A stretch of DNA of 20,000 nucleotides from Psammoneis japonica. Lineage: Eukaryota. The translations under genes were made by a program, and so were the position numbers. Numbering within the stretch: the first letter of the stretch is position 1; each line of letters begins with the position of its first letter. Below are positions 2,030-20,000 of the stretch, piece by piece. A model generated the notes under the pieces. The model did not search any database, had not been told where the DNA came from, and saw nothing but the letters and a program-made list of their open reading frames with translations. The stretch spans positions 418,442 to 438,441 of the forward strand of contig QPGO01000069.1 of the NCBI GenBank assembly GCA_008632985.1. Direction: 5' to 3'.

Positions 2030-2102
2030 ACCCTCTGCTCTCTGCCGGCACTCTAGAGAGCAGATTGGCACCTCTCCCCTTGCAGCTTTGGCAGCACTGG
2101 TT

Positions 2103-2747
2103 AAACCAGGCCTGCGGGGAGCATTGACCACTTGTCTTTCTTTTTGTGGGTGTGGGTGTGTGCCGTTGCATGCTGCATTGCCTGTGCGCACGCAGGTGGC
2201 AGCGTGGCCACCACACCGGTGACGCGGATGACCGTTGTGTCTGATGTCTCATGCCATTTTTGGGGCTGCAGCGAGGTGCACGGACACTCTTTTTTTTCCA
2301 ATTTATCGCCACAATGGCGCATCGCACAAACTCACTTGTTGTTTGATGTGTTTTCCCAGTGTGACTGTCTCGTGCAGAATTCACGATTGATTGTCTTTGT
2401 TCACAACTGAGTGCATTTTTCAACATGCCACGCCGGCAATCCCAATTTTTGAGAACTTTCGAGCTCTCCTGAAAAACCGTGCCACGCACCCGTCGCAGGG
2501 AATTTGTCGATTTTTTAGGATGTCCCCACGACCTCTCATGTCCTCAATGATCATTCTGCGAATCCAAAGAATTCATCTGTGCCAGACAACCCATGCCGTT
2601 CCAAAATCTGAGGGACACACTTTCAAATTCAGATGGACTGCCCGACTGCCCGACTGCCCGACTGCCCGACTGCCTGACTGTCCGACTGCCCGACTGCCGG
2701 ACCGACACGAAAAAGTCTGCAATCACCAACCACTGAGTGGTCAATGA
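2103..2747 (-). mobile_element. Non-autonomous Helentron/HINE (DINE-1-like) element, copy A
   Basis: 11-bp subterminal inverted repeats CATTGACCACT (2122-2132) / AGTGGTCAATG (2736-2746), terminal hairpin ACCACTGAGTGGT, 8-bp tandem array CCCGACTG near that end, and minus-strand end GGCCTGGTTT. Near-identical to 2763-3419. Confidence 0.6.
2641..2696. repeat. 8-bp tandem repeat (CCCGACTG)x7; counterpart x6 at 3321-3368
   Basis: Read directly from the sequence; a few variant units (CCTGACTG, TCCGACTG, CCCGACCC). Confidence 0.95.
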
Positions 2748-2762
2748 AATGTGTGCTTGTGG

Positions 2763-3419
2763 AAACCAGGCCTGCGGGGAGCATTGACCACTTGTCTTTC
2801 TTTGTGGGTGTGGGTGCATGTGTGCCGTTGCATGCTGCATCAGGGCCCTGCTGCCGGGGCCGGCATTGTGGCGGCTGAGTGGCATGGCCACCGCACCGGT
2901 GACGCGGATGACCGTCACATTTGATGTCTCATGCCATTTTTGGGGCTGCAGCGAGGTGCACGGACACTCTTTTTTTCCAATTTATCGCCACAATGGCGCA
3001 TCGCACAAACTCACTTATTGTTCGATGTGTTTTCCCCAATGTGACTTTTTCGTGTAGAATTCACGATAAATTGTCTTTGCATGTAACTGAGTGCATTTTT
3101 GAACATGCCACGCCGGCAATCCCAATTTTTCAGAACTTTCGAGCTCTCCTGAAAAACCGTGCCACGTGCCCGTCGTAGGGAATTTATCGATTTTTTAGGA
3201 TGTCCCCACAACCTCTCATGTCCTCAATGATAATTCCAAGAATCCGAAGAATTCATCTGCACTAAACAACCCACACCCTTTCAAAATCCAAGGGACACAC
3301 TTTCAAATTCAGACGGACAACCCGACTGCCCGACTGCCCGACTGCCCGACCCCCCGACTGCCCGACTGCCGGACCGACACGAAAAAGTCTGCAATCACCA
3401 ACCACTGAGTGGTCAATGA
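2763..3419 (-). mobile_element. Non-autonomous Helentron/HINE (DINE-1-like) element, copy B
   Basis: Direct repeat of 2103-2747 after a 15-bp spacer. Same subTIRs (2782-2792 / 3408-3418), hairpin and CCCGACTG array (3321-3368). Confidence 0.6.
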
Positions 3420-3610
3420 TCTGCACCTGTTTCTGCGGACCCCTTCATACCCTGCACTACATCTGAACCAAATTCAGTAGACCAGATTTTCGATGACTAG
3501 GAAATTTGTGCCAAGATGAAACGGGAAACTCTAACCTAAAGTACAAGCATGAATTTGCTGAAATCTGAGAGAATGCATTATGTTTAGTTGTGAAGTGTGG
3601 TTGATCTAGT

Positions 3611-6321
3611 TCATAGCTTCTCAATCTCAGCCTTGAGGTTCTCGGGGGACATGCCGAGCTCCTTCATGACAATGTCACCTGGGGCAGAGAATCCGAAGCG
3701 ATCAACTCCGATGACATTGTCGGCGTACTTGTACCAGAGTCCAGAGACACCGGCTTCCATTGCAATGCGCTTGGTGCACGAAGCAGGGAGGACGCTTTCC
3801 TTGTAGTCATCGCTCTGGCGTTCGTAAAGCTCCATGCAAGGCATAGAAACAACACGGGCACCTGGCATGTCAGCGGTGGCCTTAAGTGCGTGCTGAACCT
3901 CAGATCCAGTGGCAATAACAATAACGTCCAAGTCTTCAGTCTCCTTCTTGGCAATGTATGCTCCCTTGAGGGTTCCCTCACGACGTTCAGCAACGGACAA
4001 GTCGTTGTTCTGGTCGACATTTTGACGAGAGAAGATCAAGGCAGTGGGTCCCTCCTTGCGGGTGACAGAGTGAACCATGGCGGCAACAGTTTCCTCGGCA
4101 TCAGCAGGGCGCATGACATCAACATTAGGGAAAACACGGAGACCACTGACGGTCTCAACAGGCTGGTGGGTAGGACCATCCTCACCAACACCAATAGAGT
4201 CGTGGGTAAGGATCCAGGACACACGGTTGAGCTCAGCAAGACCAGCAACACGGACAGTAGGACGGAAGTAGTCAACAAACACAAGGAAGGTAGATCCAGA
4301 GATCTTGAAAAGACCGTGGTAAGCAAATCCGTTCATGATGGAACCCATGGCGTGTTCGCGGATACCGAAGTAAAGGTTCTTTCCAGCGTAGCTCTTGTCG
4401 AAACCGGCGCCGAAGTTTCCTCCGTCTTCGATGTAGTTACGGGTGGAGCCATGAAGGTCGGCGGATCCAGAAACGTAATACGGGACGGCCTTGGAAATTT
4501 CCTGAATGGCCTTGTTCTGAGAGACACGGGTGGCCTCGGCATCAGTGCCCATGTCGGGGATGGACTTGATCATTTCCTCGGCAGAGGCAGTCTTGTCATT
4601 GATGGCATCGTCAAGCTGCGAGGCAAGGTCGGGGTTGGCCTCCTTCCAAGCGGAGAAGGTCTTTTGCCATTCATCGTAGGCAGCCTCGTTCTTGGCCTGT
4701 ACGTCCTTGAAAAAGTCGCGGGTTCCTTCCGAAACATACCACTTTTCTCCATCAGGAAGACCAATGTTCTTCTTGGCCTTGTCAACGTAAGGAACACCGG
4801 CTTCTCCGTGAGCAGCGTTGGTTCCCTCGGTTTCTTCCATGCCCTTACCAATGATAGTGTTGCACTTGATGAACTTGGGCTTGCCGTTGTCGCTGGCCTT
4901 GGCGGAAGCGATGGTTTCCTCAACAGTGGCAAGATCGTGACCGTCAATATCATAGACTTCCCATCCGTACGCCTCGTAACGCTTGAGAATATCCTCGGAC
5001 TGAGTGTACTCCGCCATCTTATCAAGGGTGACCTCGTTGGCGTCGTAGAGAACAATGAGGTTATCAAGCTTCTCGTGGGCCGCAAAGGCAGCAGCCTCGG
5101 CGGAGACACCCTCTTGGAAGCAACCATCTCCAGCTAGAGCAAAGATGTGGTGGTCAAAGATCTTGTGGTCATCGGTGTTGTAAACTGCCTCGGCCATCTT
5201 CTCGGAAGCGGCGAAACCAACCGCGTTGGCAACACCCTGTCCAAGGGGTCCCGTAGTGCACTCAATTCCGGGTGTGTTGTGTTCAGAGTTGGGGAACTCG
5301 GGGTGACCAGGGGTCATGGAGTGATGTTGACGGAAGTTCTTCAACTCCTCCATGGGGAGGTCGTATCCGGCAAGGTTGAGCCATGAGTAGATGAACATGG
5401 AGCCATGTCCGGCAGAAAGGATGAAACGATCACGGTTAATCCATTCGGGGTCCTTGGCATTGTAGCTCATCTACATTTTGTGAAGAGAATTCGGAAAAAG
5501 AACAAAGTCGTGAGCGCAAAAAATCGAAACGACATCATATCACTTGCGGTCGCCAGCCCACGTCACTGATCGCAGTAGAAAGTGTACAGATTTCTACGCG
5601 CGACAAATGGACTCAGTACCTGACCACGTATGTGTTTTCAAAAAAGGAACGCAATGATGTCTCACGTACCTGGGAGCCGTAAAGCGAGGCACCAATCTCA
5701 GCAGCACCAAGAGGAAGACCCATGTGTCCAGAGTGAGCTGCAGCAATGGAGTCCATAGCAAGACCACGTGCTTCGTTGGCAGCAGTGGCGAGAGCGGCCA
5801 AAGTGTCCGTCTCGGTGGCAGTGCTCATCTTGAGAACATTGCTCTGCATGACACCAAGAAAGATCGAGAGTATACCAACAAGCATAATGGACCAAGTAAA
5901 TGCATTAATATTGGAGAGTATCATTGTTTCATTGTCAAGAGTGCGTACGAGAGAGAAAACGGGGAGAGAAAAAATGTGAGTTAGTCGTAGGATTCTGAGA
6001 AACTTGCTCCATGCCACACAAAATCCGACAAATCACATGCAAGACAAAATAGCTGAATTTCTCCAAGTCAACAAGCGATCATTGCAGCCCTCGCTGTGAC
6101 GAAGCAAGTCGACAAAGACTGAACGTCGTATTTCCTTTGCAGGCGCGAACCAGAAGGTGTTTTCCCGACACAGTTACGGGGAACAAGCGCATATTGTGCA
6201 TATCTTTCTTGTTACGTACCTGGCGGACTGCAAAGCGAGCAGATTTAAGAGGAGTTCCGGCAAATCCGTTGACACCGGCGGACAAAGCCGTCGCGGCGAT
6301 AGCAAGCATGGAGAACTTCAT
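3611..6321 (-). CDS. TKL: Plastid-targeted transketolase, 3 exons (6321-6220, 5843-5670, 5470-3611), ~711 aa
   Basis: Transketolase motifs [40 protein letters not shown] (ThDP-binding), [24 protein letters not shown]. Two phase-0 introns with GTACGT donors (6219, 5669) and CAG/TAG acceptors (5844, 5471) join in frame. N-terminus [30 protein letters not shown] is a signal peptide plus Phe-initiated transit peptide, typical of diatom/heterokont plastid proteins. Confidence 0.95.
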
Positions 6322-6664
6322 CGTGAAAGAAAGCGTGGTTAGAGAACCCACAAGCTTTTTATGAGAAGGCATCAATCAAAGCCGAATGGTTGTTGTGCAG
6401 ATCAACAGCGCGACACGTACGTACGCGTCGTCGACGTTGGATCTTTATTTTTTTCGTGGCGGGAAAAAGCGTGGCGAAGTGCCACCTTTCCTTCACTCTT
6501 TCCCATTGAATACTAATTTTTTCGAAACAGATGGAGGAATCGTGGCCAAGATTCAATCTTTTCAAAAAACATTCCAAATCACAAGTCCGAAGCCAAGATT
6601 CCTTCTCAAAAGATTCCTGTGGTGACGGGCAGACCGCCCGAAAATGCTGAACTAAGATAGATAG

Positions 6665-7281
6665 ACAGACAGTCGCGACGACCAGACTGTTGGCAGGGGT
6701 TGGCCACGACATGTCATTCGTTCATTCAAGCAAAGCGGAAGACTTCACAGTTGAACAATGCAGAGCAGATTGAGACTGGTGAGGCCCGAACACAAAACGA
6801 AGACGAGGCTGTCCCCAAAATCATCTGTGGGAGGAGGCAAAATGCTGCTTTGCATTGGTTTTTGCTTCCAGCATGCAGGCTGTGGCTGCAAGCCAATGTG
6901 CGCCAGGCTGCCCATGTTGTGACTCCTCCTCCTCACTGTTTCAAGCTGGAGGCAGGCCAGAGTTTTGCAACCGTGCCAGGTTCTTGTAGGAGCAAAACGC
7001 TGCGTTGTTGTGCCGCACAGTGCATGCTGGCAAGGACAGAGCAGCTGCTTTCTCTCTTTTCTCTGGAGGAGAAAGCTGGCCAAGAACAGCTCTTTGCCCA
7101 GACTCCTCTGTTCTTCGTTGGCATCTCTTGACCCTTCAACAACTGGGAAGTGAAGAGAGTTCTTGCTCAATGCCACTGGCTGCCCTCCATCTCCTGGGCA
7201 CTGCTGCCATGCTGTTTGTCAAATTTCGTGTCTCTCAAATTTCTCTGAACAGATGGACCTGCCTTGTTGTTTGTGGTTTGA
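6665..7281. other. TpA-depleted island of unknown origin in the TKL/ASF1 divergent intergenic region
   Basis: Only one TA (~6987) seen in ~620 bp, with TA common on both sides. No termini or family motif confidently recognised. Confidence 0.6.
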
Positions 7282-7679
7282 CTAATCAAACGTCTTTCAA
7301 AAGAGTTTATTTTTATCTTTTGATGAGTGCCGTTGCGTTGTGTTGGGTTTTCTCTGCCGTGTGTCTTCGAGCTCCGAAAAGTAAACCTCGCGCGCCAGGA
7401 ATGAAGAGAAAGCAAGCCCGTAGAATTTGTACCTGGGTGCTACCACCCGGTGATCGAGCTGTCGCGTTGCGTTTCGCCGCATTTTCTGCTTCAGCTTCAG
7501 CGACGACACAACACCCTTGATCGGTTTGTGCTTTGAGAGTTCGACACAGCGTTTGCTATTCTTATCGCTATACCAGCCGTTTCTCAGCAGGATCATCTCT
7601 ACGTTTATCAGTCATTTTTGCTTCGAGTTATTCCGAAATTAGCAATTAGAACTGCATCATACAACATAAATCTTTCACA

Positions 7680-8484
7680 ATGGCGCTCGTCAATGTATGC
7701 AACATGGTAAGTCACCGCAAACGCTCTGCCCGATTCGTAAGGAGGCAATTGCCGCACTCAATGTCTTTTTCTTGTATATAACGCACCAGGTGGTTCTCGA
7801 TAATCCAACAAACTTTAGCAATCCGTTTCAATTCGAAATTACCTTTGAATGCTTACAAGAGCTCGAAGACGGTACGTGAGCAATCTCTGTATGAGACTTG
7901 AAGCTAGCTCCTTATCTATCACCCCATAAACCTCACAGCTTTTCCCGTTATTTATTATAGATTTGGAATGGAAGGTGCTGTATGTTGGCTCAGCAGAGTC
8001 ATTTACACACGATCAAGTTCTGGATGAAGTCATGGTGGGTCCGGTGCCGGTGGGCCTCAACAAGTTTGTCTTGCAGGCGGACGCCCCCGATCCACAATCG
8101 ATTCCTCGTGAAAGTCTCTTGGGGGTCACGGTGGTCTTGGTTACTTGCAGCTACCGAGAACAGGAGTTTGTTCGGATTGGATACTATGTCAACAATGAAT
8201 ACGAGGGACACGATGCAACTCAGGAAGACGCTCCTCCACTCCCAGAGACGCTCGATATGAACAAGGTGTTGAGAACAATCTTGGCGGATAAGCCACGTGT
8301 CACGAGATTCCCCATTACGTGGAATAGCGACGGCAGACAGGCTCAGCAGGAAGCACAAGGCGATGAAAACATGACGTCTCCGGCCAAGGTTGCTGATGCG
8401 AATACTCATGCAGCTTCTGAAGATATGGATATTGGCACAGGTATGCATGTGGTTACACCCATGGATACCGCCATGCAAATGTAA
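7680..8484 (+). CDS. ASF1: Histone H3-H4 chaperone ASF1, 3 exons (7680-7706, 7790-7871, 7961-8484), ~210 aa
   Basis: Spliced product MALVNVCNM-VVLDNPTNFSNPFQFEITFECLQELED-DLEWKVLYVGSAES..HDQVLDEVMVGPVPVG..KFVLQADAPD..GVTVVLVTCSY..QEFVRIGYYVNNEY..KPRVTRFPITW matches the ASF1 fold. Canonical GTAAGT/GTACGT donors and CAG/TAG acceptors keep frame. Confidence 0.95.
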
Positions 8485-8920
8485 AGCAGATATTTTGCTC
8501 ATGGCATGATTCTTCGGTTTCGTTTTATTTTCAGAAGAAACATGATATTGTAAGTCCTACAAGTTGAGACAGGGGTGATTGGTGGTTTACCGCAACAATT
8601 ATTGAGCTTCTGTTAGGTATGTTGTAAACTAAGACACCAGAGACACGGGATATAGAAATTGAGCCAAACAAGAACTATCGCTTTAGCTTGAAAATCGCTG
8701 TTAAATTGTAGCTTGCAGCAAAGTCACTCTTGAACCTCTAAAGCACACACGCGACGACGATTCAAAGCTCTTGTCGAGAAACTGAAAACTAAAATACATG
8801 TTTTCTCTACCGACAATCCATTCTTATGTGAGAAAACCAAAGCCCTTATGCCCCCATCGCGTGATTGCTCTTGTTACTCACGTAGCCGTCTATGATTTTC
8901 ACCGAAAGCTTGTAAGTTTT

Positions 8921-9205
8921 CTACCGTTGCATGTTGGTTGGCCTAGCTCCACCGTCGACCCGTTTATCCCACATTTTGAGCCATGTACACAAGGTACAGG
9001 TACGTTCAAATAGAAACGGCTTTGACCACTGCTTGTCTGGAAACCCATCGCGGGCCTTTGTTTCGCGGCAGTATCCGCACATAACCATACCGACAACATG
9101 ACGTTGCCTCTTGCAGGGAGGCTCTGATGCGTCGGAGTGACGGATCATATGATGGCTGTTAGTTGTGTCAACCATGACGACGTCCGGTACGGATTCGACT
9201 TGCAT
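8921..9205 (-). CDS. Putative small (94 aa) zinc-finger protein, CxxC..K..F..QW..R.CxxC (Stc1-like finger)
   Basis: ORF from ATG 9205 reads MQVESVPDVVMVD...PPCKRQR (NLS-like)...CGYCRETKARDGFPDKQWSKPFLFERTCTLC. It lies in normal-composition DNA, head-to-head with the BAP31-like gene (~325 bp apart) and tail-to-tail with ASF1. Confidence 0.55.
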   Translation of the reverse strand: MQVESVPDVVMVDTTNSHHMIRHSDASEPPCKRQRHVVGMVMCGYCRETKARDGFPDKQWSKPFLFERTCTLCTWLKMWDKRVDGGARPTNMQR

Positions 9206-9531
9206 GATACCGAGTACAATCCCTTTCTTACACACACAAATGTCTCTCGACAGACTCTTGAGAAATGAAGTGAGAAGTGAGAGCGTCGCTTTGTCGCTTC
9301 AGAAAAAACCGAGGGAAAAAAAATGGCGCGAGGAGACCACAAGCAGAGAGCTCGCGCTGATGACGTCGACCTCGCAAGATTTCATTCCGGCCCGATTCGA
9401 TATTCATTCCCGCCAAAAAAGATCGCCTACTCGCTACTCGCAGAAGCATCAACAAAAAGGACTCAAACCGAAGCGTTTAGAGCCACTTGAGTAGATCGTT
9501 TGCATACACACATTCTATACGCTCTATCATC

Positions 9532-10092
9532 ATGGGACCTGGATGGACACTGTACCTGTTTCTCATGCTGCCACTCCCACTCTTGTCGGTGATGCTTCTC
9601 ACGACGTGCGGCAGGTGGGGTTTTGTGCGAAAGGCGTGTCGAGGCGCCAGCAGTCTGAGCTTTAATGTGGGAAGCTTGGAAATTTCACTCCGCTCTGTTT
9701 GTTTCACGATTTCTGTTATCATGTTTTTGCTTTGCGCCAGAGCAACTACCCAAGTCGCCATGCCAGTAGACGAAGTTCTTTTGACTCCAAGCAGCAAAAT
9801 ACAACTCTATTCCAAAAAGTGGAGAAATGAACGTAATTTTTGGATTAGTGCTCTCATTCTCATCTTATGGTATGTTCTCGGTGGATTGATGAGACTTCAA
9901 GAGGAAAATGCATTATTACGAAACGTGCTCGAAGAACTAGGTTGCGACTTGACGGAATTTCAAGCAAATCAACAAGCCCAGGGGCGAGCGAAGAAGGACA
10001 AAGAGCAACCTGCGAGAGACCCGAAGGACAAGCCAAATGGTAAAACGAACGAAAAACAAGCTTCATCTGGCGAGACAAAAAAAGACAAATGA
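9532..10092 (+). CDS. BAP31: BAP31/BAP29-family ER membrane protein, 186 aa, intronless
   Basis: Three hydrophobic segments, KWRNERNFWIS motif before the third helix, a coiled-coil-like stretch (LQEENALLRNVLEE) and a C-terminal di-lysine ER retrieval signal KKDK. Confidence 0.8.
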   Translation: MGPGWTLYLFLMLPLPLLSVMLLTTCGRWGFVRKACRGASSLSFNVGSLEISLRSVCFTISVIMFLLCARATTQVAMPVDEVLLTPSSKIQLYSKKWRNERNFWISALILILWYVLGGLMRLQEENALLRNVLEELGCDLTEFQANQQAQGRAKKDKEQPARDPKDKPNGKTNEKQASSGETKKDK

Positions 10093-10376
10093 TAGAGAGG
10101 AGTCCATTTTGGCGTGAGGAATCGATCCTGCCATGAGGACAGTTCGTTCTATTAAGTAATTATTGACAGACCCCCACGACCATTATATTGCGGTCATGGT
10201 CTTTTATAATGAAACCTCTATTGACTATGCCCCAGTGTTCAACAATTCGTTAATCGCCAAAGGCTATATCTAGCTTTTTAGCTTCTACTCTCTGCTAGAG
10301 CTAGAATAGTACGGTACAGTAGTAGTAGCTCTCAATTGCGACCAAATTTGAATAAAACATGCCACGCGGCAATTAA

Positions 10377-10780
10377 GGCGGACCGTCGGCTTATTTTTTT
10401 CGCACGTCTTTCCGGGTTTTCAGCATTTTTGACGGGTCGCGACAGAAAATAACACGACAAAAGCACGAGCGACAATGATGATGTTCGCGACGAGCGGTGA
10501 GTTGCAAAGTATCACCTCACGAGGGACACTCATTGGTTTTATTATCATGATGTGGTGCAGATTGATTCACATGCTTTCGTCCCTCGTGCCACTGGGCCAA
10601 TTTTGAGAGACAGCGCAATGGCCGTCATCGTCGTGCTTCGATCGCGGAGCATGGCTGTTCTCGTTTTTCGAGGGCGATCGAACAATTCTTGTATTTAAAA
10701 TTAACAAATGTAAATAAACGCATCCAAACACAATGCCAATTTTAGGATCAAATGCTGAAAAAATATGTCGGCGGTCCCCC
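10377..10780. mobile_element. 404-bp MITE with ~23-bp imperfect TIRs and TTAA target-site duplication (Kolobok-like GG..CC termini)
   Basis: TTAA(10373-10376) GGCGGACCGTCGGCTTATTTTTT ... AAAAAATATGTCGGCGGTCCCCC TTAA(10781-10784); 19/23 TIR match. Internal inverted pair CACGAGGGAC / GTCCCTCGTG. Confidence 0.75.
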
Positions 10781-11010
10781 TTAAACGCTGGGGCCCTGCT
10801 TTGTTGAGGTTGGAGTCCTGTGCTGTCAAAAACATGAATCGCGCCCGCCCACATGCATCGCGAGGTTGGATGCAGCTCTCTGACTCAAGTCACATGAAAC
10901 ACAACCCTTGGAAATGCTTCGCCACCTTCCTCATGCCAGCTTGCAACTCCTTTTCTGAACAAGCCAGAGGCCTGCTGACAGACATCCGAGATGGGGAGTG
11001 CACTCCCTTG

Positions 11011-11520
11011 TGTCGGACAGACTGGCACAGACAGCACAGAGAGATCCGATGATCTCTCTCTGCTCACTTTCTTTCTCATCTGGTGCACAATCATCATCTG
11101 TCCTAGATGTCCGTTGGATCATCCCGACACCGCCAGTCCGCAAGGTTGTGAGCAGCAGTGCGCTGTTTGTCTTCCTCAACACAGCTGCGCTGCAACGTTC
11201 ACTGTGTGATTTGGCGACGTTTCTCCGTTGAAATCGTCATCTTTGTCACAGCCATTTTTCTCACTCGATTTGTGATCATCACGACCACCGTAGACCACAC
11301 ACCAGTGTTCTGCGCGGGATTTTGATTTTTTTCCCGCGCAACCATGGTGCCGACTGAGCAAACTTCTGTCGATTTGACCAAGATCAAGTCGACACAGGTC
11401 GAATTCAAACCGCAAAATCACTTGCCTGATGCCCATCATTGCCTGAATGCACTTCATTCAGATGCGACACCTGCTCCTGAAGATCTTCTGGATGGTCTTC
11501 AATCTTGTTCATTCACCCAT
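11011..11520 (+). mobile_element. Truncated Copia relic: LTR ~11011-11142, PBS 11144-11153, leader, gag start at 11344
   Basis: Begins TGTCGGACAGACTG and is similar to the reverse complement of the 13747-13939 LTR. Followed by GGTTGTGAGC (cf. half-tRNAiMet PBS GGTTATGAGC). The ORF EFKPQNHLPDAHHCLNALHSD aligns with EFQAHTTMPHLHACLNEIHAD of the 1-2029 element. Confidence 0.65.
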
Positions 11521-12149
11521 GCCAACCTCCCCAACTCAGCCCCGCCAACCCTTCTCCTGCGCTCAAGCCGCCAAGCAACCTTCCCAAGACACCCATTCTG
11601 AAACCACCTTTTCTCTCTTTGCTGTGTCTTGGCACCCTCCTCTGCCCTCCTGACTCTCCTCACCTGCCCAGAAGTGCTTCTTCCCACCCTGCCGAGACAT
11701 TGACACCAACACTGATGCAGAAGCTCTGTGCCGCACCTCTTTTCACACCACCTCTTGGTTGGAAGGGGGTGCTGGGTGAGGTGGAGGTGCCAGAGGGCTC
11801 CATTTCTGGAGGGTGGACCTGAGGAGTTGGGGCTGTGATTGGAGCAAATGGCTTCTCTTGCAGCAGGGCAACCTGCTCCAGGGAGTGACAGGTGACATGG
11901 CATTGAGCACGTGCAGCAAAGGTGTGTCAACAGCATGGCAGTCATGTTGGCAGTGAACAAGATCCATGCTTTCAGAGGGGGTTGTGTTGTCAGGACCTGG
12001 CCCACCTCCTCTGGGACCATCTTGTCATGGCCCACAAGCACCAAAGCATTCTTTGAAATGTCCTTCTTGACTCCTTCTTTGAGCAACACAATCTTTGCCC
12101 TTGTTGATGCCATCAAAAAATGCTGAGATTTGTCTGTGCAACTCCTGCC

Positions 12150-12850
12150 TCAATGCCCACATTGCCAACAAGCACCATTGCCCCCACACCTCTGCCAGCC
12201 TTTGACTCATGTCTTCTGGCCACCCTTCAAAAAAAAATGCCTGGCTGGACCTCTTCCCTCCAGTGGCCTGAAGCCCTCACTCTCACACCTTTCCCTTTTT
12301 TGAGCCTCCCTCTGGCACAAGCTGTCCTCATCCTCCTGCCTCCAAGCTTGTCACACCCTCCACCCTCTCATCAGCATTGACACCTCTGCCCCCTTTTGGA
12401 CAATGACTCCCCTCCCCTTGGCAAACCTCTTCAGCCCCTTGTTGGAAACTCCTTTTTCTTTTCAAGTCCCTTGTTCTTTGCCCCCAACCCAAGACATCTG
12501 ACCAGCCACACTTGTTCTCTGCCCTCATCTCCAAGTGCCTTCCCTTTTTTGAAACAGCCCAGTTTGCTCTTTGGATGACTCCTCTCAAGTCTCAAGCAGA
12601 GCCTCCCCCACCACCCCTTCTGATGACCCACCCAATTTGATGCCTCTTTGCCAGCATCCCAACCAGCACCATGACCACCATCTTCAATGGCCACCCTTCC
12701 TTCAGCATGAAGGTTTTGTCCAAGGTTGCCCCCCTGGCCCCACTTTCTTGAGCCTTGTCCTCATGTGTGTGCTCACCCCACTTGACCAAGAACTGCATGC
12801 CAGTGCTTCTTCCCTCCCCACTCCTCCCCAGATCCAGCACACCAGCCATT
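12150..12850 (+). mobile_element. CRE-like non-LTR retrotransposon relic, reverse transcriptase N-half
   Basis: PLGKPLQPLVG (~12410-12450; cf. RPI..G..LRRL) and QHEGFVQGCPPGPTFLSLVL (12703-12762; RT motif G..QGCPLSP). Strongly C/T-rich sense strand. Boundaries approximate. Confidence 0.6.
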
Positions 12851-12879
12851 GGAGTGCAGATCACAGACAGAAAATGGAA

Positions 12880-13285
12880 GGTGTCATTGTTCTGCAGGCT
12901 GAAAAAATGGTCGGGAGACAAAGAAAAATCCTTTTGGGAACAAAAAATGATGTTGGCTTGATTGGATCACAAAATGATGGAGTCAAAAAGAGAGCACATC
13001 ACAGAGTTCAGCAACACAGCTCAAGGCCACAACCTGAAAGAGTGCTGAAGGGCAAAGAGAATGTGGTGACATGACAGGCTCCCCAAATGCTGGGGCTGTG
13101 GCGGTGGTGCAAGCACCAGCAGAAGAGAATGAGAGGAGGACAGCAATGTGGCAGACTCCATGAGCACCAGGGCTGTGACAACATGAGCACCATCAGAAGA
13201 GAATGAGAGGTGGATCTCAGAGAGATTTGCTCATCAGTCCAAAAGGGTGGTCTGGTCATCATCCATGTTCAGTCTGTCCATGGTG
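12880..13285 (-). mobile_element. Copia LTR (partial, ~13285-13035) + PBS-like (13034-13023) + leader fragment
   Basis: Clear nucleotide similarity to 1770-2005 (CAGAGTTC..ACACAGC.CAAGGCCACAACCTGA, CTGTGACAACATGAGCACCA, GGTCTGGTCATCATCC). Confidence 0.7.
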
Positions 13286-13289
13286 TGAA

Positions 13290-13939
13290 GATTGCTTTCT
13301 GGAAAAGATTTGCAACCAGCAGCTCTTCTGCAGGGTCTTTGGTCTCTGGTGGGCTCACATGATTGAGGGCATGTTCTTGCAAGAGATCAGCCACAGCATC
13401 TTATGATTTTGCACGTTTGGCATCACAAAAAAAAGTTGAGCCCAACGGTTCTTGAGCCACCACAAAGGCAGCACAAGTGCTCAGAAGCCCCACTGCAGTG
13501 AGGACACAGTTGGAACACTGTGCTGATCTCCACAAGGGAGTCAACGACAGTCTTTTTGAGGGTCAGATGTGCCACGGTGGAGGGCAAAAAATGCACACAC
13601 ACCACAAAACAATTTTGTTGACAATGCTGGGAAATGTCAGCTGCAGAAACAAAAAATGGGCTGGCTTGATTGGCTCACAAGCAAAACAAGCCATGGTGGA
13701 ATTTTCAACACAGAAAAGAGCACAAACTGCTCACAAGGCCACAACCAGTCAGAACAGCAACAGCCAGCTGAGCTGACAAGCACAAGAGTCCTCTCTGTAA
13801 ACTGGCAACAGCAACAACACATGCACTGGTGAGAAAGAGTGAGAAGAGCAGATCTCAGAGAGATCTCACTCATCTGTCTGAAGGGTCTGGCTGTCATCCA
13901 TGTGCAGTCTGACCATGTGCAATGGTCAGTCTGCTGACA
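13290..13939 (-). mobile_element. Copia relic: LTR 13939-13747 (TGTCAG..CTGACT), PBS-like 13746-13735, leader and gag N-terminus
   Basis: Shares AAGGCCACAACC and LTR sequence with the other copies. Minus-strand VADLLQEHALNHVSPPETKDPAEE aligns with VADLLQDCLVNQAFPPCTVDPADM at ~1500-1425. Confidence 0.7.
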
Positions 13940-15200
13940 CTCTCACAATGACAGCCCAGCTTGCTGCCTCTCTGTTTCTCTTGGCAGCGCTGGCTGCCAT
14001 GACATTCCTGATGCTGCAGCTGTCCTGCCCTCTCTCCATCTCTCTTGCCCACTCTCTCCTCTTTGCCAAACAAGGCATCCACTCAACAGGTGCTGACCAA
14101 CACTTTTGCCTGCCTCCCAGCTGGTCTGCTGCCCTCTCCTCCTGGTCTGACCCGTGCCAATTTTTGATTCCTTGCCACTGCCCTCTTCCAACTTGACTCT
14201 CCCAGCTTTTCCTCTGTGTCTTCTTCTGTCTCCAATCACATCCTCCACAGTCTTCCTCAACAAACAACCCAACTTTGCTGTCATCAGCACAGTGCCCTTC
14301 TCCTGCTCCTGTGCCATCCTGACCTCCAACTGGCCCTCTCTTCCCATTTCTTTTTTCCTTGCTAACTTGTGCCTCCATTCCCTCTCACAAGCCCATCCAA
14401 GTGACCATCTCTCATCCTCGTCCCATGTCTCCCTCCTCCTCTTCCTCTGCAAGCTCCACCCCCCTGCTGTCCTCCCTCCAACCTCTGACACACCTGCCTT
14501 GTTGCCCCTGTGGACAGCACGGCTCAGAGATCCCTTTGGTGGCCATGCGCTCACTTGCTCCAAGATGCGTGCAAGGGCCCTCTCTCCAGTGGCGTCTTTG
14601 ACAAAATCTGTGATGTCATTGAAAACTGCGGTCCTCTCAGCAGCATTTGTCACTCTTGTCATCTCATGTCCTTCTCAAACTGCTGGCTGGTCATCCCAAT
14701 CCCTGACTGCCATCTCAAGTGACCTGCCAACATTGAAGCACAGCTTGCGCCAGGCTCAATGTGGCCTCCCTGTGCTCTGTGCTCCCTCCATCCACCACTT
14801 CCTTGCTTTCAATGTCATGGTCCCTCCAGCTCCTCCCCATCCTGCACTTGGTTGCCTGCTCCTTCCAGCTCACTTGCCAAGGCTTGCCTCAGCTGCACTT
14901 GTGACAACCTTCTGGGGTGCAGCGCCCCTTCCAACAGCAGCTCTTTTGTCATCATTGCAGTCAACCAATCCAGCCTTTTTCTTCTCCCCTTCACTCTTGA
15001 TCACTGGGGTGGAATGGGCTGCCATTTCCACACCCTCTTCTTTGGCCACTCACCCAACAACTCTTCCTCTGTCCCACCCCTGCATCCCAAGCTCCCCTGG
15101 AACAACCAGTCCAACTTCTCTCATTCTCATGCTTCATTTTTTTCATCCCACAAATCTTCTCTTGCTCCTTTTGCCAGTCAACCTCCTTGTCCAAGCCACC
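13940..15200 (+). mobile_element. CRE-like non-LTR retrotransposon relic, C-half: RT thumb, CCHC finger, restriction-like endonuclease
   Basis: In order across frameshifts: VSLGSAG (cf. LP...GGLG, ~13975), CPCG..DPFGGHALTCSK (14503-14564), DKICDV (cf. H..IRD), K*PANI (cf. RPADI, 14717-14734), LAFNVMV (cf. AFDVTV, ~14805), PFTLDHWGGMG (14987-15019). Confidence 0.65.
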
Positions 15201-15944
15201 ATCACCTGGAAACAACTTCCCGCCAATTGTTTTGGCTCTGTCCATCATTCATCTGCCCCCCAGTCAATGGTCTGTTCAATTTCTTGGTGCCTCAACCTTG
15301 GCCTGGCTCTTTCCAACCACCTGCCAATCCTTTCTTTGCTTTGCTGCCCCCCTCTGCTTCCTTCCATCCATCTGTCTGCATCTCTGAGCCCAGCCTTGTT
15401 TTCCAAACCCAGTCACCACACACACTTGCACTGCCCCCCTGATCCTTTTGTGCTGCAATTTTCCCTTTGTTGCCACAAAACAACTTGGCCAAGTTGGAGC
15501 AGACCCTGATGGCTTCTGCAGCATTGCACAATTGAGTGGCAAGTCAATGCTTCCACACAGACATCTGCTTGTGTCAGTGCCTCCACATGCAAAATGTCAA
15601 GTGACTGTTGCATCCTGCAGCCTCATTGGAGCTCTTTTCAAATGAAAAGAAAGGCGCCATTGGTGCTGGGAGGCAGAACACAGCAGCGCACACTCTCAAG
15701 AAAAGAATGACAGGTGCAAAAACAGAGCAGAGGAAAGAAAAGCAACCACACAATGATGGCTGATTTGTCATCATCCATCCATCCATTTTCATCTTGTGGC
15801 AGAGAATTTGGATGTTGGATGTGAGCCCAATGAAAACTTCCATTGTCCAGATCATGATGGATTGGGGGGGGGGGGGGGATCTCTTGCTTGTTGCAGTGCT
15901 TTCATGTGTGCCAAACAACAGATTGTCAAAGGCTGGCTGTTGTG

Positions 15945-16190
15945 CCAAGTTGAATGCCATCTGCAATGCCACCCCACAGTGTCATGTTGAAATGCTGGCC
16001 ACCACCACATTGTGTTGAATGCCATCTGTGCAGTGTCATGTTGAATGCTGGCCATCATCATGTTGCATCAAACACCATCTGCAGTGTTTTGTGCTGTCAT
16101 GTTGAGTGTTGAATGCTGGCTGTCACATCACATCAAATGCCGTCCTGTGTGTTGCGTCAAATGCCAGCTGTTGCATCATGTCAAATGCAG
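15945..16190. repeat. Degenerate minisatellite with core (TG/CA/CG)T(TG/CA)AATGC
   Basis: Repeated TGTTGAATGC, CATCAAATGC, CGTCAAATGC and TGTCAAATGC units with variable spacers. Confidence 0.75.
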
Positions 16191-16415
16191 TTGATCAAGA
16201 TGCTTCAGAGCAGCAAAGTTCAGTTGACACATCAAAAAACAAAATTAGACAAACCAACAGCAACAGAGGCACAGGTGAAAAAGTTGTCAAAATCATTGCT
16301 GCCTGCTTCACTTTTCTTGCTGCATTCTGGAACCCTGGCCTTTTGAAAAAGTTGTGGGCTCTTGTTGGCATCATTTCTGCCAACACAAGCTCATGACCCC
16401 AGTCCCTTGCAGCAT

Positions 16416-17294
16416 CTAAATTGCGCTAATTCCACCTTGCATGAGCTTCCCACTGTTGCCCTCAATGAGGTCACAAACTCTGTTGGAGATGTGAACAGAT
16501 GCATTGTCTGCAACCACAGCCAAGCCTGGTTCATAAAGACAGCATTTCCAAAGTGCAGGAACCACTTTTTCTTCCACACGAGCCTTGAATCTGGCCATGT
16601 CCACTGTTCCACATTCTGTGTCTTTGTTGTTGGGATGATTGCGCACATGCTCCACCATCTTGCAAGATTCTTTCACAAACCCAGCATGTCATCAGAGGCA
16701 ATTGGGGGTTGCACCACTTGTGGAAATCTTTCTCAAAATGCAAATCAACCACAGGTGGATTGTCCAGTTCCTCCCACCCTCCAGCAGGCACATTTTGTTT
16801 TGGCTGTTTCATCAAGAAATGCAGCTGTTGTGGGTTTTGGTGGGAACACATCCAGCCATCTTTGATGCCACTGCTTTTCAGCTTCACACCTCTGTTGGGC
16901 ACAGACTGCAGCCTTCTACAAGCTGTGGCCAAGTCAAAACAGTTGGCACCATGTGTCACTTGGGCTCCATGTTTTGCCATGTCTCTCCTTTCTGTTGCCA
17001 GCTGCATCTCATCAAGGTGCAAATGGGGCATCTCTCTTTGATGGCATGGAGCACATCATGATTGTCAGCTTCAGAAAATGAACAAGCAGCTCTTGTTGTG
17101 ACATCATGCCATCTTTTCCAGCTTCTTGCTCTGTGATGAGTTTCAGCTTTCATCTCACCAGGCTGGAGCAGATGAAGCCACTTCCAAAAGGTTTTGCATG
17201 GGGTGCTCTTCATCCAAGAGCCATCTGTTTCCTGCCAATCATCTTTGTTGAATGTTTGCACTTTGTTCCCATCATTCTTGCCAGCACAGCTCAA
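16416..17294 (-). mobile_element. IS630/Tc1-mariner-type (DDE_3) transposase relic, frameshifted and 3'-truncated
   Basis: In order: PHLHLDEMQ (cf. P.LYLDE.Q, ~17030), FLDETAK (first catalytic D, ~16810), GFVKESC, GTVDMARFKARVEEKVVPAL, VVADNASVH (second D, ~16505), RVCDLIE. The PYSPDLNPIE segment is absent. Confidence 0.75.
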
Positions 17295-18257
17295 AGACTT
17301 GCCACCTGGCTAATCTGTTGTTGTTTCAACGTGTGCCTTTGGGATTTTCTTGTCATCATGCTGAACTCCACCATGGCTTCATGAGGCTGGAGGACACAAA
17401 CAAGCAAAGCAGTGCACTCCAGGTTTCACAGACCCCCCTGAATTGCATTGATTCTTTCTGTGCCCCCAAAATGGTTTTTGCTTCTTTCTTCTTGCCACAA
17501 AAAGAAGCCAGAGCAACCGCGATGCAGGAAGCTGCATCAAAAAAAAAAGTGCCATTGTTTGCATGGTGCATGACCACAACAAAAGGAGCACAGATTGTCA
17601 TGACAACAATGCTTGCCATGACAGTGCAGCATTCAGACACTCTTCTCAGTGCAACAAACAAATGATGTGAGCCACAAAAGCCAGTGGATGAAGCCAAATC
17701 AACAAAGCACAAACAACATGGCCAATGGCATGTGGTCAAAGCCCACAATTGTGTGGTGTGCAAAATGACTTTTTGTTGTGTGATGACACAACAATGCAAC
17801 AATCAGGCCTTTCTCAATGCAGTGAACAAACAATGCAGGCCATGAAAGCCAACAGATGAAGCTGAGTCAATGAAGCACAAACAACATCGTGGGGCTGCTG
17901 ACAGATGCAAAAACACGCAACATCAGTGGAAGTGGCTCTTTGAGTGCTTCTCAATGAGCCCACAATCAATTTTTGAAAAAAAAGGCAAAAAAGCAGATTC
18001 TTGCATTGATTTCTGATTCAATGATGCCTGGCTGAATTTCAAAAGAGGTCAAATGGGGACAAAAGTGTGACAGCATCTCAACAAGTGCCACTGTGTGGCA
18101 CAGCTGCATTGAAAAAACTCACATTTTGCTTCTGCACATGCAAGATTTCATGCTTGGGGCAAAGTGTGCAGAGTGCTGGAGGGGCAAAAGTTGCAAGCTC
18201 AGAGTGGGGTTAATGGCAAAGAACAGAGACAATGGCAACAAATGCACGTGCACACAC

Positions 18258-18395
18258 GTGGTGCCACAAGGGCATGTTTGGTTGGAGGGTGATGCCCCGT
18301 TGTGCTCAACAGATTCCTGTCATTGTGGTCTGCCCAGCTCATTTGCAAACTTGCTTTGAGGTTGTTTGGGCTTTTGTTTGTGGCCTCTGGGGTGA
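18258..18395 (+). pseudogene. Fragment of mitochondrial inner-membrane peptidase IMP1/IMP2 (S26) C-terminus
   Basis: VVPQGHVWLEGDAPLCSTDSCHCG..LL*GCLGFCLWPLG versus family consensus VP.GHVWLEGDN...S.DSR.YGP....L.GR...R.WP; internal stop. Confidence 0.75.
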
Positions 18396-18779
18396 AGTCT
18401 GGACATGCATGGCTCCTCCAGTCTGTTTCTTCAATGAGAACAACCTGTGCTGCTGCTGTCGCCAGAACAAATGCTCTGAGACAGATGATGCAAGCTTCAC
18501 AGCTGACCTCACTCTGAATGGCCGCGGTCCAAAGTCAATGAATGCACTCTGTTTGTGCTTGACTGCCAGCCTGGCAAAGGCAAAAAGACACAGACCTGGT
18601 TTAAAGTTCTGTCACACCATTGACTGGCATGTTCAACATGGGCCAACCCACACTTCTGGCACACTGACATGCAGCAGAAGGGGAAAGGATTGGCCAGAAC
18701 TGGCATCACCTGATGGCAACACCTTTCAGAAATGACTGACAATGGGGTGGGCACCACAAATTGCAAAGTGCGTCACCTC

Positions 18780-19870
18780 CTTGATTGTGCTCCATTTGAG
18801 ACAACGCTTGCATGCAGAAACCCAGCTCTGCATTTTAGCCACACAGAGTGGGTGGGGTGTTTTCCTCTGCTGAGTCCAAAAGCAACTCTTGATCCTCTGC
18901 AAAACGGTTTTGACACCTGTTGCACACAGCCATGGATTCAGCCTCAGGAGCAAGACAATGATGTTGAGAAGTCTTTCTTGAGTCAACATCACAACCATGA
19001 ACTTGTTTGTTGTGTGACTGCCACATGCTGTGTAAATTGTGGGGAGCACAAAGCACTGTTGGGTGGCACCAGATGTTTAACAGGTGCCTGCTCAAGTTCT
19101 GGAACACTTTCCAAACCACTCACCTTCATGAAACTGGAGCCCACAACAAGCACCAAGCTCAAGAGGAGAACAAACCCCCTCCTGATTGAGTGCTCTAAGT
19201 TGGGCACTTCATTTGGAAATTGTGATGGGAGGTGCCATTTCATCATGGGTCCAAGCTTCAGGTGCAAAGAAGAGAAAATCTTCTGGAGAGGATGTGTGTG
19301 GTGTCAAGTTTGTTGCCATGCTTGTGAAGCCCTTGAGGGAACTTCCCATGCTGAGGCTCATCCGAGGGACACTTGACAGCGTGGTCACAGTCTTCCATGG
19401 GTGCTCACAAGACAAGCATCAGTGCCATCAGGCAGGATTGCACCTGCAAAGAACAATCTGTTTGTGGAAGAAGCAGACACAAGTGTCATCTGTTCTGACA
19501 ATGAACCAAGCTGGCGTGAGCGACCGTCCAGTCAATGAGAGCTGAGTCAGATGAGTGTTGCCAGCTGCACTCACACATGCACTCCAACAAGGGAGAAGCA
19601 ATGGCAGCACATTGCTTGGGGGTGCTTGAGCCTGGCAGAAACAATGCCATCTGATGACAAAAGTCAAGCTTGACAGCAAGGAAAGGGAGTTGCAACAGGC
19701 ATGTCATGAGAATGTCACCCATGAAGCTGATTGGCCAATCCATCAACTCCAACATTGACCCAAGCATTGAGGGGCAACAAGTCTACCAGGGATGTGCAAT
19801 TTTGATGACTTGTGAACCAAGACACTGGTGAGCCAACCATGAGGAGGAAGAATCCAAGTGAGAAACAATG
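18780..19870 (-). mobile_element. 3' part of an RNase H-containing non-LTR retrotransposon ORF2 (Ambal-like), degenerate
   Basis: In order: WFTSHQ...LPLNAWVNVGVDGLA (RNase H C-terminus, 19819-19730), CLSC..P.EDCDHAVKCP (CCHC knuckle, ~19420-19366), MWQSHNKQVHG (cf. W..RN...HG, 19027-18994). Boundaries approximate. Confidence 0.6.
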
Positions 19871-20000
19871 GCACACAACAGCTGGCAAACTTTGTTGACA
19901 ACACCCCAGTCTGAAGATGGGACATGTGCGCTGACAGGATTTGAACAGGATTTGGGGTGCGCGCGAAATGTCGCGCGCTGTTTGTTTGCCGCGCACAGTT

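Follow-up and report, generated by a model that had tools for sequence, protein, structure and literature searches.

Tracts nearly devoid of TpA beside a diatom gene island probably record TpA-directed hypermutation

A 20,000-nucleotide stretch of the genome of the diatom Psammoneis japonica (assembly GCA_008632985.1, contig QPGO01000069.1, positions 418,442 to 438,441; hereafter the window, numbered from its first letter) holds a gene island set between two tracts in which the TA dinucleotide (TpA) is almost absent. The tracts are probably silenced, transposon-derived DNA that was rewritten in place, beside the island, by two separate context-specific transition processes. The first would be fast and directed at TpA, turning TA into TG or CA with equal probability, i.e., an A:T to G:C change on either strand of the palindromic step, and would be about 97% complete in the tracts of the window. 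The second would be the ordinary, slower decay of methylated CpG to TG or CA, which would have reached only the tract cores. The signature of the first process matches the TpA to TpG/CpA hypermutation measured in the alga Bigelowiella natans (Mettrop et al., bioRxiv 10.64898/2026.01.13.699255); here it is read from its end state, at saturation and in a diatom.

The depletion is restricted to particular dinucleotides. Positions 10785-20000 contain 18 TA against 578.8 expected from base composition (observed/expected ratio, o/e, 0.03) and positions 1-1680 contain 1 against 110.5 (0.01), close to the approximately 17 in 9.2 kb and approximately 1 reported in a first-pass annotation made from the sequence alone. 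The other A/T steps, which that annotation had called plentiful, are near expectation in 10785-20000 (AA 1.27, TT 1.14, AT 0.83): the loss is specific for TpA. Between 11001 and 20000, every one of the 18 500-bp intervals has a TA o/e of at most 0.09 and a CA+TG o/e of at least 1.57, the edges are sharp, and TA-free runs reach a maximum of 2.1 kb (the longest are 11292-13401 and 14364-16245). CG is depleted as well, with 92 occurrences in 10785-20000 against 563.8 expected (0.16), and CA and TG are enriched to 1.67 and 1.85, together 2014 against 1148 (1.75); in 1-1680 the corresponding ratios are 0.29 for CG, 1.92 for CA and 1.70 for TG. The sum of TA, CG, CA and TG makes up 23.0% of dinucleotides in the right tract vs 23.7% in the island. 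Since transitions leave the order of purines and pyrimidines untouched, the constancy of pyrimidine-purine steps at about 23% identifies the changes as transitions; the balance is what bulk conversion of TA to TG/CA plus CG to TG/CA predicts. The GC content of the tract is unchanged at 0.50 because the two conversions cancel.

The island (3450-10782) has an ordinary dinucleotide content. Its gene-bearing part, 3450-10370, has 245 TA against 459.9 expected (o/e 0.53) and a CG o/e of 0.91; the TA value lies within the range of nine intact related metagenome loci (0.51-0.82), in agreement with the ordinary TA content ascribed to these genes earlier. The TA-sparse domain comprises 1-2983 and 10783 to the end of the window, whereas CG is sparse only in 1 to about 1430 and from about 11571 to 19900, so the TA-poor domain is the wider of the two on both sides of the island. 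The left core tract (1-1430, 1 TA) is depleted of TA and CG and enriched in CA and TG; it is followed by a left flank (1431-2983, 9 TA), a high-copy repeat with normal CG. On the other side, a practically TA-free right flank (10783-11570, 2 TA) with normal CG, partly high-copy, leads into the right core tract (11571-20000, 16 TA), which is depleted of both dinucleotides and continues past the window end. The right edge is abrupt at 10782/10783, with 22 TA in 10302-10782 and then 2 in the following 2.6 kb, and it matches the end (10784) of a contig derived from a related copy in run X2, a public run listed as 'DNA?' but cDNA-like in behaviour, with coverage limited to the genes and 10466-10784. 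The left edge, at about 2983, is graded and lies inside the second copy (B) of a 680-bp tandem duplication; 1681-3449 as a whole has a TA o/e of 0.18 and a CG o/e of 0.79. Erasure stops short of the transcribed genes.

The only coding remnant identified in the tracts is a Ty1/copia ORF1/Gag pseudogene at 127-1275 on the minus strand. Its open part is a 293-amino-acid (aa) open reading frame (ORF) at 115-993, longer than in 199 of 200 Markov simulations, and weak similarity continues to about 1654. A phmmer search with this ORF returned 203 homologues (best E 1.3e-56), proteins of about 650-750 aa, and tblastn aligns aa 132-527 of the Gag of metagenome locus L001 with window positions 1275-127 (E 3e-48). 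The homologous ORF in metagenome loci L003, L004 and L007 has immediately downstream of it a Pol that carries gag_pre-integrs, SH3_retrovirus and RVT_2 domains; this is the Ty1/copia arrangement, and 127-1275 is therefore a copia Gag pseudogene. The element extends beyond the window start: only ORF1 lies inside, and Pol would lie before base 1. Pfam finds no family in ten full-length Gag homologues, and a Protein Atlas search with the 293-aa ORF gave no usable match.

Functional relatives of this element cannot be TA-free, since tyrosine has TAY codons only, and the remnant allows the timing of the loss to be tested. None of its 8 conserved Tyr columns (Tyr in at least 60% of 29 homologues) still reads Tyr: four read Cys (TGY), three His (CAY) and one Ser (AGC), as the first-pass annotation had anticipated in proposing that conserved Tyr had become Cys or His. 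By comparison, at the Tyr columns of the 26 homologues whose Tyr content is normal, 279 of 314 cells hold Tyr and 4 hold Cys or His. Seven of the 12 conserved Arg columns have become Gln, His, Cys or Trp, with codons of the form CAN or TGN, and the two that stay Arg are both AGR codons. Lys is retained at 5/5 columns, Cys at 4/4, Trp at 2/2 and Gly at 10/11. Undoing TA/CG to TG/CA brings the family residue back at 27 of 57 changed conserved columns (14 through TA alone, 13 through CG alone), compared with 6/57 and 8/57 for two control dinucleotide rules; the remaining 30, which neither reversal restores, reflect ordinary decay. Judged from these codons, TA loss was imposed after insertion, at least where this can be tested.

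The tandem duplication (plus strand, 2103-3419, two copies of an approximately 680-bp unit at 2103-2762 and 2763-3419) gives a second view of the same change. Over 637 aligned columns the copies differ by 64 mismatches, among which are 8 double swaps between CA and TG, 6 differences between TA and CA/TG, and 7 between CG and CA/TG. Two adjacent transitions are needed to exchange CA for TG, and the most plausible origin is an ancestral TA that each copy resolved independently; in both, most CG remains intact. The estimated number of ancestral TA is about 24 in 637 bp (2 shared, 6 half-converted, 8 opposite and about 8 invisible, co-converted sites), i.e., 3.8%, a normal density next to the 3.5% of the gene island. 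By a rough estimate from this alignment, the rate at TpA would exceed the background divergence between the copies by a factor of at least about 25. Together with the Gag Tyr columns, the swaps bear out the earlier suggestion of a TpA-specific transition (TA to TG or CA) acting after insertion. Each copy also contains an 8-bp microsatellite, GACTGCCC, at 2636-2702 (8.4 copies) and 3321-3374 (6.8 copies).

Some relatives of the Gag remnant in protein databases appear to have undergone the TpA change nearly alone. Among 158 family proteins fetched, with a median Tyr content of 3.8%, five have 0-0.1% Tyr (P0121, P0271, P0132, P0253 and P0269), and P0140 has 0.6%. Three of these low-Tyr proteins were included in the alignment. 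P0121 (689 aa) has Cys or His at 11 of 13 conserved Tyr columns and keeps Arg at 17 of 19 and other conserved residues at 163 of 183; the corresponding counts are 8/9, 9/11 and 93/131 for P0132 and 9/13, 15/19 and 138/187 for P0140. These proteins look like translations of TA-erased elements, in which, to judge from the residues kept, TpA would have disappeared while CpG loss and other decay stayed minimal. Since neither TAA nor TAG stops can occur in TA-free DNA, such pseudogenes are called as long ORFs. A homologue search with P0121 returned 33 relatives, and in Protein Atlas it falls among unnamed clusters, two of which have zf-CCHC in 20-41% of members, a lead only. The TA-poor flanks with normal CG and the Tyr-free homologues with Arg kept thus separate TpA erasure from CpG decay, and the former is probably the faster.

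The right tract is also recovered as contigs. Of the words sampled from 10001-20000, 80% are present in the public DNA run X1, whose Logan contigs cover 11496-12484, 12487-13446, 13817-15878 and 16143-19928 with 1-14 differing letters each, at a depth of 43-60 in the tract vs 54-58 in the genes. Since the tract thus reappears at single-copy depth, it is unlikely to be an artefact of assembly. At a threshold of at least 90% identity, most of 12007-19343 has single-copy depth in X1, although heavy mutation itself could push copies below that threshold. The first-pass annotation's view of a RIP-like process induced by repeats gains no support from this depth, nor from the single-copy state of the nucleocytoplasmic large DNA virus (NCLDV) insert described in B. 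natans. When 36 of the listed differences between X1 and the window are put in context, the tract contributes 14 events, 8 of them interconversions of pyrimidine-purine steps; these 8 include CA to TG doubles at 11300/1 and 14345/6, a TA to TG at 14364 and four CG to TG/CA. In the Gag region, one of the listed differences falls at 155-156, where X1 has TA and the window TG.

The outcomes are symmetric. CA makes up 0.47-0.54 of CA+TG in every sub-tract, Tyr has become Cys and His in a ratio of 4:3 in the window and 20:15 over four mutated sequences, and the identity of neighbouring outcomes compared with shuffles gives z values from -0.7 to 1.6. Changes on both strands speak against an editor of sense RNA alone. 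Of the 19 TA that survive in 1-1430 and 10783-20000, 14 lie in a TTA/TAA context, vs 109 of 258 in the gene island (Fisher p 0.015), a weak hint; the mutator may be sensitive to neighbouring bases, or the bias may stem from how new TA sites arise.

An enzyme presumably drives the TpA-directed process, with silenced or foreign chromatin as its target, and the foremost candidate would be a TadA/ADAT2-type adenine deaminase that acts on DNA. TadA and ADAT2-ADAT3 deaminate A following U or T, and the inosine that they make is read as G. In the natural tRNA substrate A34 is preceded by U33, which would explain a preference for TpA. Inosine would pair with C, so that an edit in DNA would become an A to G change at the next replication. 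Mobile elements would be irreversibly inactivated in this way, losing all Tyr codons, many Leu and Ile codons and any TA-containing signals. Natural DNA editing by these enzymes on such a scale is unproven, although amphioxus ADAT2 is reported to edit DNA (via Mettrop et al., 2026).

A TpA-directed process has been measured in B. natans. Of 231 single-nucleotide mutations that mutation-accumulation lines gained in an integrated giant virus and virophage, 230 were A to G or T to C; the mutations in the viral regions were all on TpA, arose at about 6e-7 per site per generation and occurred in only some lines (Mettrop et al., 2026). The same genome has 324 coding sequences with a TpA frequency of 0.0018, enriched for reverse transcriptase and DDE domains, and the authors of this April 2026 preprint propose an ADAT2-like DNA adenine deaminase (Mettrop et al., 2026). 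The first-pass annotation knew of no described mechanism, a statement that these measurements overtake; its central inference was correct and came remarkably near to the mechanism put forward in that preprint. Both cases share the exclusive TpA to TpG/CpA change on both strands and a confinement to regions of silent DNA, viral in B. natans and here a copia remnant plus tracts of presumed transposon or foreign origin, both hosts belong to the SAR (stramenopiles, alveolates and Rhizaria) supergroup, and the window gives 0.03 and 1.75 for the two quantities that in B. natans have thresholds of at most 0.43 (Rho_TpA) and at least 1.52 (Rho_CpA+TpG). The host here, however, is a diatom (a stramenopile) rather than a chlorarachniophyte (a rhizarian), and the identified targets are a long terminal repeat (LTR) retrotransposon and its surroundings rather than a giant virus and virophage. 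The extent is near saturation (o/e 0.03) vs a Rho of 0.45 in the active NCLDV region, CpG decay coexists, and the process is read from its end state instead of being measured in real time. The available text of the preprint does not mention diatoms and contains no occurrence of CpG (Mettrop et al., 2026). Literature searches, together with the accessible text of three diatom papers (PMC6604790, PMC2806351 and PMC8147415), gave no report of TpA erasure in diatoms.

Fungal repeat-induced point mutation (RIP) offers the familiar example of such a defence: it likewise inactivates mobile or duplicated DNA irreversibly through context-specific transitions, leaves long skewed tracts and spills into neighbouring sequence. 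By contrast with the tracts, where TpA is destroyed and GC stays at 0.50, RIP changes C to T mostly at CpA, creates TpA and lowers GC. It also requires duplicated DNA and a sexual stage; here the flanks are high-copy, and 12007-19343 has single-copy depth at 90% identity or above, a threshold that heavily mutated copies may miss. The enzymes of RIP are the cytosine methyltransferase-like RID and DIM-2, and enzymes of this type have no evident role in an A:T to G:C change. Decay of methylated CpG leaves CG depleted with a matching gain of TG and CA, as found here, and explains the CG to TG/CA component in 1-1430 and 11571-19900; it accounts for a part only, since it cannot remove TA, and TA is erased in copies with intact CGN Arg codons. 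The first-pass annotation was therefore correct that neither 5-methylcytosine deamination nor RIP can produce the TA loss, but CpG is also eroded in the tract cores, which had gone unnoticed. Diatom methylation is found mainly on transposons in the CG context. Overall, the methylation level of diatom genomes is about 6% (Krasovec et al. 2019, PMC6604790).

Several points count against reading the tracts as transposon-derived DNA edited by a TpA-directed deaminase. For 10785-20000 there is neither ancestor nor outgroup, and the direction of change there is taken from composition and from analogy with the Gag remnant and the duplicate. The transposon or foreign origin of this region is an assumption, as no protein family was found in it: mobile DNA is identified in 1 to about 1654 as the copia Gag pseudogene, and the right tract is without homology in the protein searches. 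Tblastn of intact Gag and Pol from L001, L003, L004 and L007 against 10785-20000 gives a best E of only 0.17. Among 84 ORFs of at least 90 aa in the window, Pfam recognizes only the transketolase, ASF1 and Bap31-like families of the gene island; 137 tract ORFs of 45-89 aa give no family, six-frame read-through of 1-3450 and 10785-20000 (X at stops) gives 0 families at E<=0.1, and Rfam gives 0 matches. The first-pass annotation had described the loss as crossing several unrelated elements; the Copia element is borne out (the Gag remnant, 1 to about 1654), but the two non-LTR types, the Tc1-like element and the host pseudogene were not reproduced in these Pfam searches. Run X1 may come from the assembly's own sample, in which case it excludes assembler error but not an effect at the level of sample or library, and the X1-window differences come from 40 of 165 positions, so the allelic spectrum is a sample. 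Strand-coordinated clusters of CA or TG, often left by processive single-strand deaminases, are absent in a runs test, although saturation could erase them. If the low-Tyr database proteins come from transcript assemblies, they could reflect RNA editing rather than a change in DNA. Finally, at the palindromic TpA, adenine deamination (A to G) and thymine modification (T to C) are indistinguishable; the TpA mutator proposed in the first-pass annotation agrees with A to G on either strand, but its deaminase is deduced from the pattern, which T to C chemistry fits equally. A 474-aa read-through frame at 16084-17505 on the minus strand, with a motif faintly reminiscent of a non-LTR reverse transcriptase, was set aside: a word-based search with it yielded 2175 candidates, none of them at E<=0.001.

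The thymine of TpA might thus be the target. A TET/JBP-type dioxygenase would make 5-hydroxymethyluracil (5hmU), possibly 5-formyluracil, in silenced repeats, and mispairing with G or error-prone repair would fix T to C; this is rather unlikely, yet all data fit it equally, TpA being palindromic, and a 50:50 outcome without strand runs is in keeping with a mark set symmetrically on double-stranded DNA. Since 5hmU itself forms a good pair with A, however, a near-100% change of T to C would need further steps beyond it. No sign of 5hmU in diatoms came up, and no search aimed at it was made. In dinoflagellates, also a SAR lineage, TET/JBP homologues produce 5hmU, which is concentrated at repeats and keeps transposons silent; in Crypthecodinium the T that it replaces is preferentially that of TA and TC (PMC11572971). 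There it is an epigenetic mark that the available text does not report as mutagenic, and, mildly against a thymine target, TC, the second preferred context in Crypthecodinium, is not depleted in the tract (o/e 1.05; GA 0.98). The authors of the B. natans study favour adenine deamination (Mettrop et al., 2026).

Editing during the retroelement cycle is improbable and disfavoured. An ADAR- or ADAT-like editor would hypermutate element RNA or minus-strand cDNA, and the mutated copies would then integrate, as APOBEC3-edited retroelements do. The sole identified element is indeed an LTR retrotransposon, near-full-length Tyr-free Gag ORFs are present in databases, and ADARs prefer a 5' U (Mettrop et al., 2026, Discussion). 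Such editing would affect one strand and the reverse-transcribed unit only, whereas the strands are about equally affected, as the Tyr to Cys and Tyr to His counts show, and erasure spans non-coding flanks, a tandem duplication with independent outcomes and about 8 kb without a retroelement signature. CA/TG swaps are also among the differences between the window and X1 contigs of the same locus, and the B. natans mutations arose in situ, in integrated DNA, during clonal growth (Mettrop et al., 2026).

A technical artefact, in which base modification or a library or base-calling bias makes heterochromatic TA and CG read as TG or CA, is very improbable. The tracts are probably modified heterochromatin, modified bases can give systematic errors on some platforms, and the possible identity of the X1 and assembly samples favours this explanation. 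Against it, k-mer contigs from X1 match the window and have normal depth, the TA/TG and CA/TG sites at which the two differ are discrete, as alleles or copies would be, and the Tyr to Cys/His signature recurs in proteins predicted from JGI, ENA and Logan contigs. The Gag remnant also shows ordinary decay alongside the signature, which moreover arose de novo in Illumina-sequenced B. natans lines (Mettrop et al., 2026). Equally improbable, and disfavoured, is the absence of any mutator, with DNA TA-poor from the start (a master copy or a foreign donor) or TA lost through GC-biased gene conversion or selection: those parts of the TA-poor flanks that are high-copy at 90% identity or above could conceivably stem from a TA-poor master copy, but the loss of all conserved Tyr codons while relatives keep Tyr is damage and not design, swaps of CA for TG between duplicates need a TA or CG intermediate, biased gene conversion would deplete AA, AT and TT too, all of which are normal, and an o/e of 0.03 is far beyond selection-driven TA avoidance (genes, 0.53).

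With TpA-directed hypermutation as the preferred explanation, a broader proposal can be put forward more tentatively: diatoms and chlorarachniophytes may share an enzyme-driven defence, possibly ancestral to SAR, that erases TpA on both strands of silenced or foreign chromatin, faster than and independently of cytosine-methylation decay, with a natural TpA-specific DNA adenine deaminase or a mutagenic thymine modifier as its effector. In the sources available to us, the only prior account of a mutational genome defence that destroys TpA is the 2026 preprint on one rhizarian alga. A saturated end state in a diatom transposon landscape suggests a phylogenetically wide process; the diatom tracts further suggest that the target range includes transposons besides integrated viruses, that TpA erasure precedes CpG decay, and that the process shapes large genome parts in ecologically dominant algae. 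If true, such a defence would mirror fungal RIP in function and represent an A-to-G DNA base editor that occurs in nature, and the enzyme behind it would be of interest as a natural A:T to G:C DNA editor. The phyletic pattern of TA-erased tracts could be matched to deaminase and dioxygenase families to find that enzyme, as some diatoms are genetically tractable and MMETSP and genome data abound. There are consequences for annotation, too: Tyr-free 'proteins' such as P0121 are already in public databases, and heavy TA plus CG erosion conceals transposons from homology-based annotation.

The gene island holds three genes recognized by Pfam: a transketolase on the minus strand (coding exons 3614-5470, 5670-5843 and 6220 to about 6348), ASF1 on the plus strand (7930-8481 plus an upstream exon) and a Bap31-like gene on the plus strand (9481-10089). 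The transketolase is 83-89% identical to proteins from Cylindrotheca, Odontella, Triceratium, Nitzschia and a Bacillariaceae metagenome-assembled genome. Spliced, cDNA-like contigs of run X2 define the introns 5471-5669 and 5844-6219 in transketolase and 7706-7959 in ASF1. Within 6987-9176 of the island, 10 of the 11 listed transition differences from X1 fall in pyrimidine-purine steps, for which about 46% is expected by chance; the listed differences include interchanges of TA with CA/TG at 6987, 7315, 9089 and 9176 and a TA to CG double at 9160/1.

High-copy repeat families border the island and the window end, as evidenced by summed X1 depths of 1000-8700 in 1335-3400, 10006-11339 and 19344-20000, vs about 57 for single-copy DNA. 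The left flank reaches 2000-8700, 10673-11339 has 3596, and the depth climbs to about 41000 at 19955; 19929-20000 starts a CG-rich unit unlike the CG-poor tract that precedes it. A dispersed short repeat flanks the island on both sides (1830-1969 vs 12985-13203, also about 13822-13900; 77-84% identity), and X1 contigs that join these sites indicate more genomic copies. Self-comparison in a purine/pyrimidine alphabet, which is blind to transitions, recovers only the 680-bp duplicate, a pair spaced 168 bp apart at 17639/17807, repeats of 48 and 53 bp around 16000, and short stretches in which 1919-1971 matches about 13076-13879.

TA-free tracts, having lost two of the three stop codons, give rise to long spurious ORFs, e.g., a 452-aa stop-free frame at 14151-15506 on the plus strand. 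Leu, Ser and Pro abound in this frame, which is without homologues or a Pfam family and lies in a strongly pyrimidine-rich stretch within 14000-15600; in 14001-15000 the GC skew is -0.41 and the AT skew -0.30. Because transitions keep the purine/pyrimidine pattern, the polypyrimidine character of 14000-15600 is ancestral, and the frame is probably a by-product of TA loss plus strand composition.

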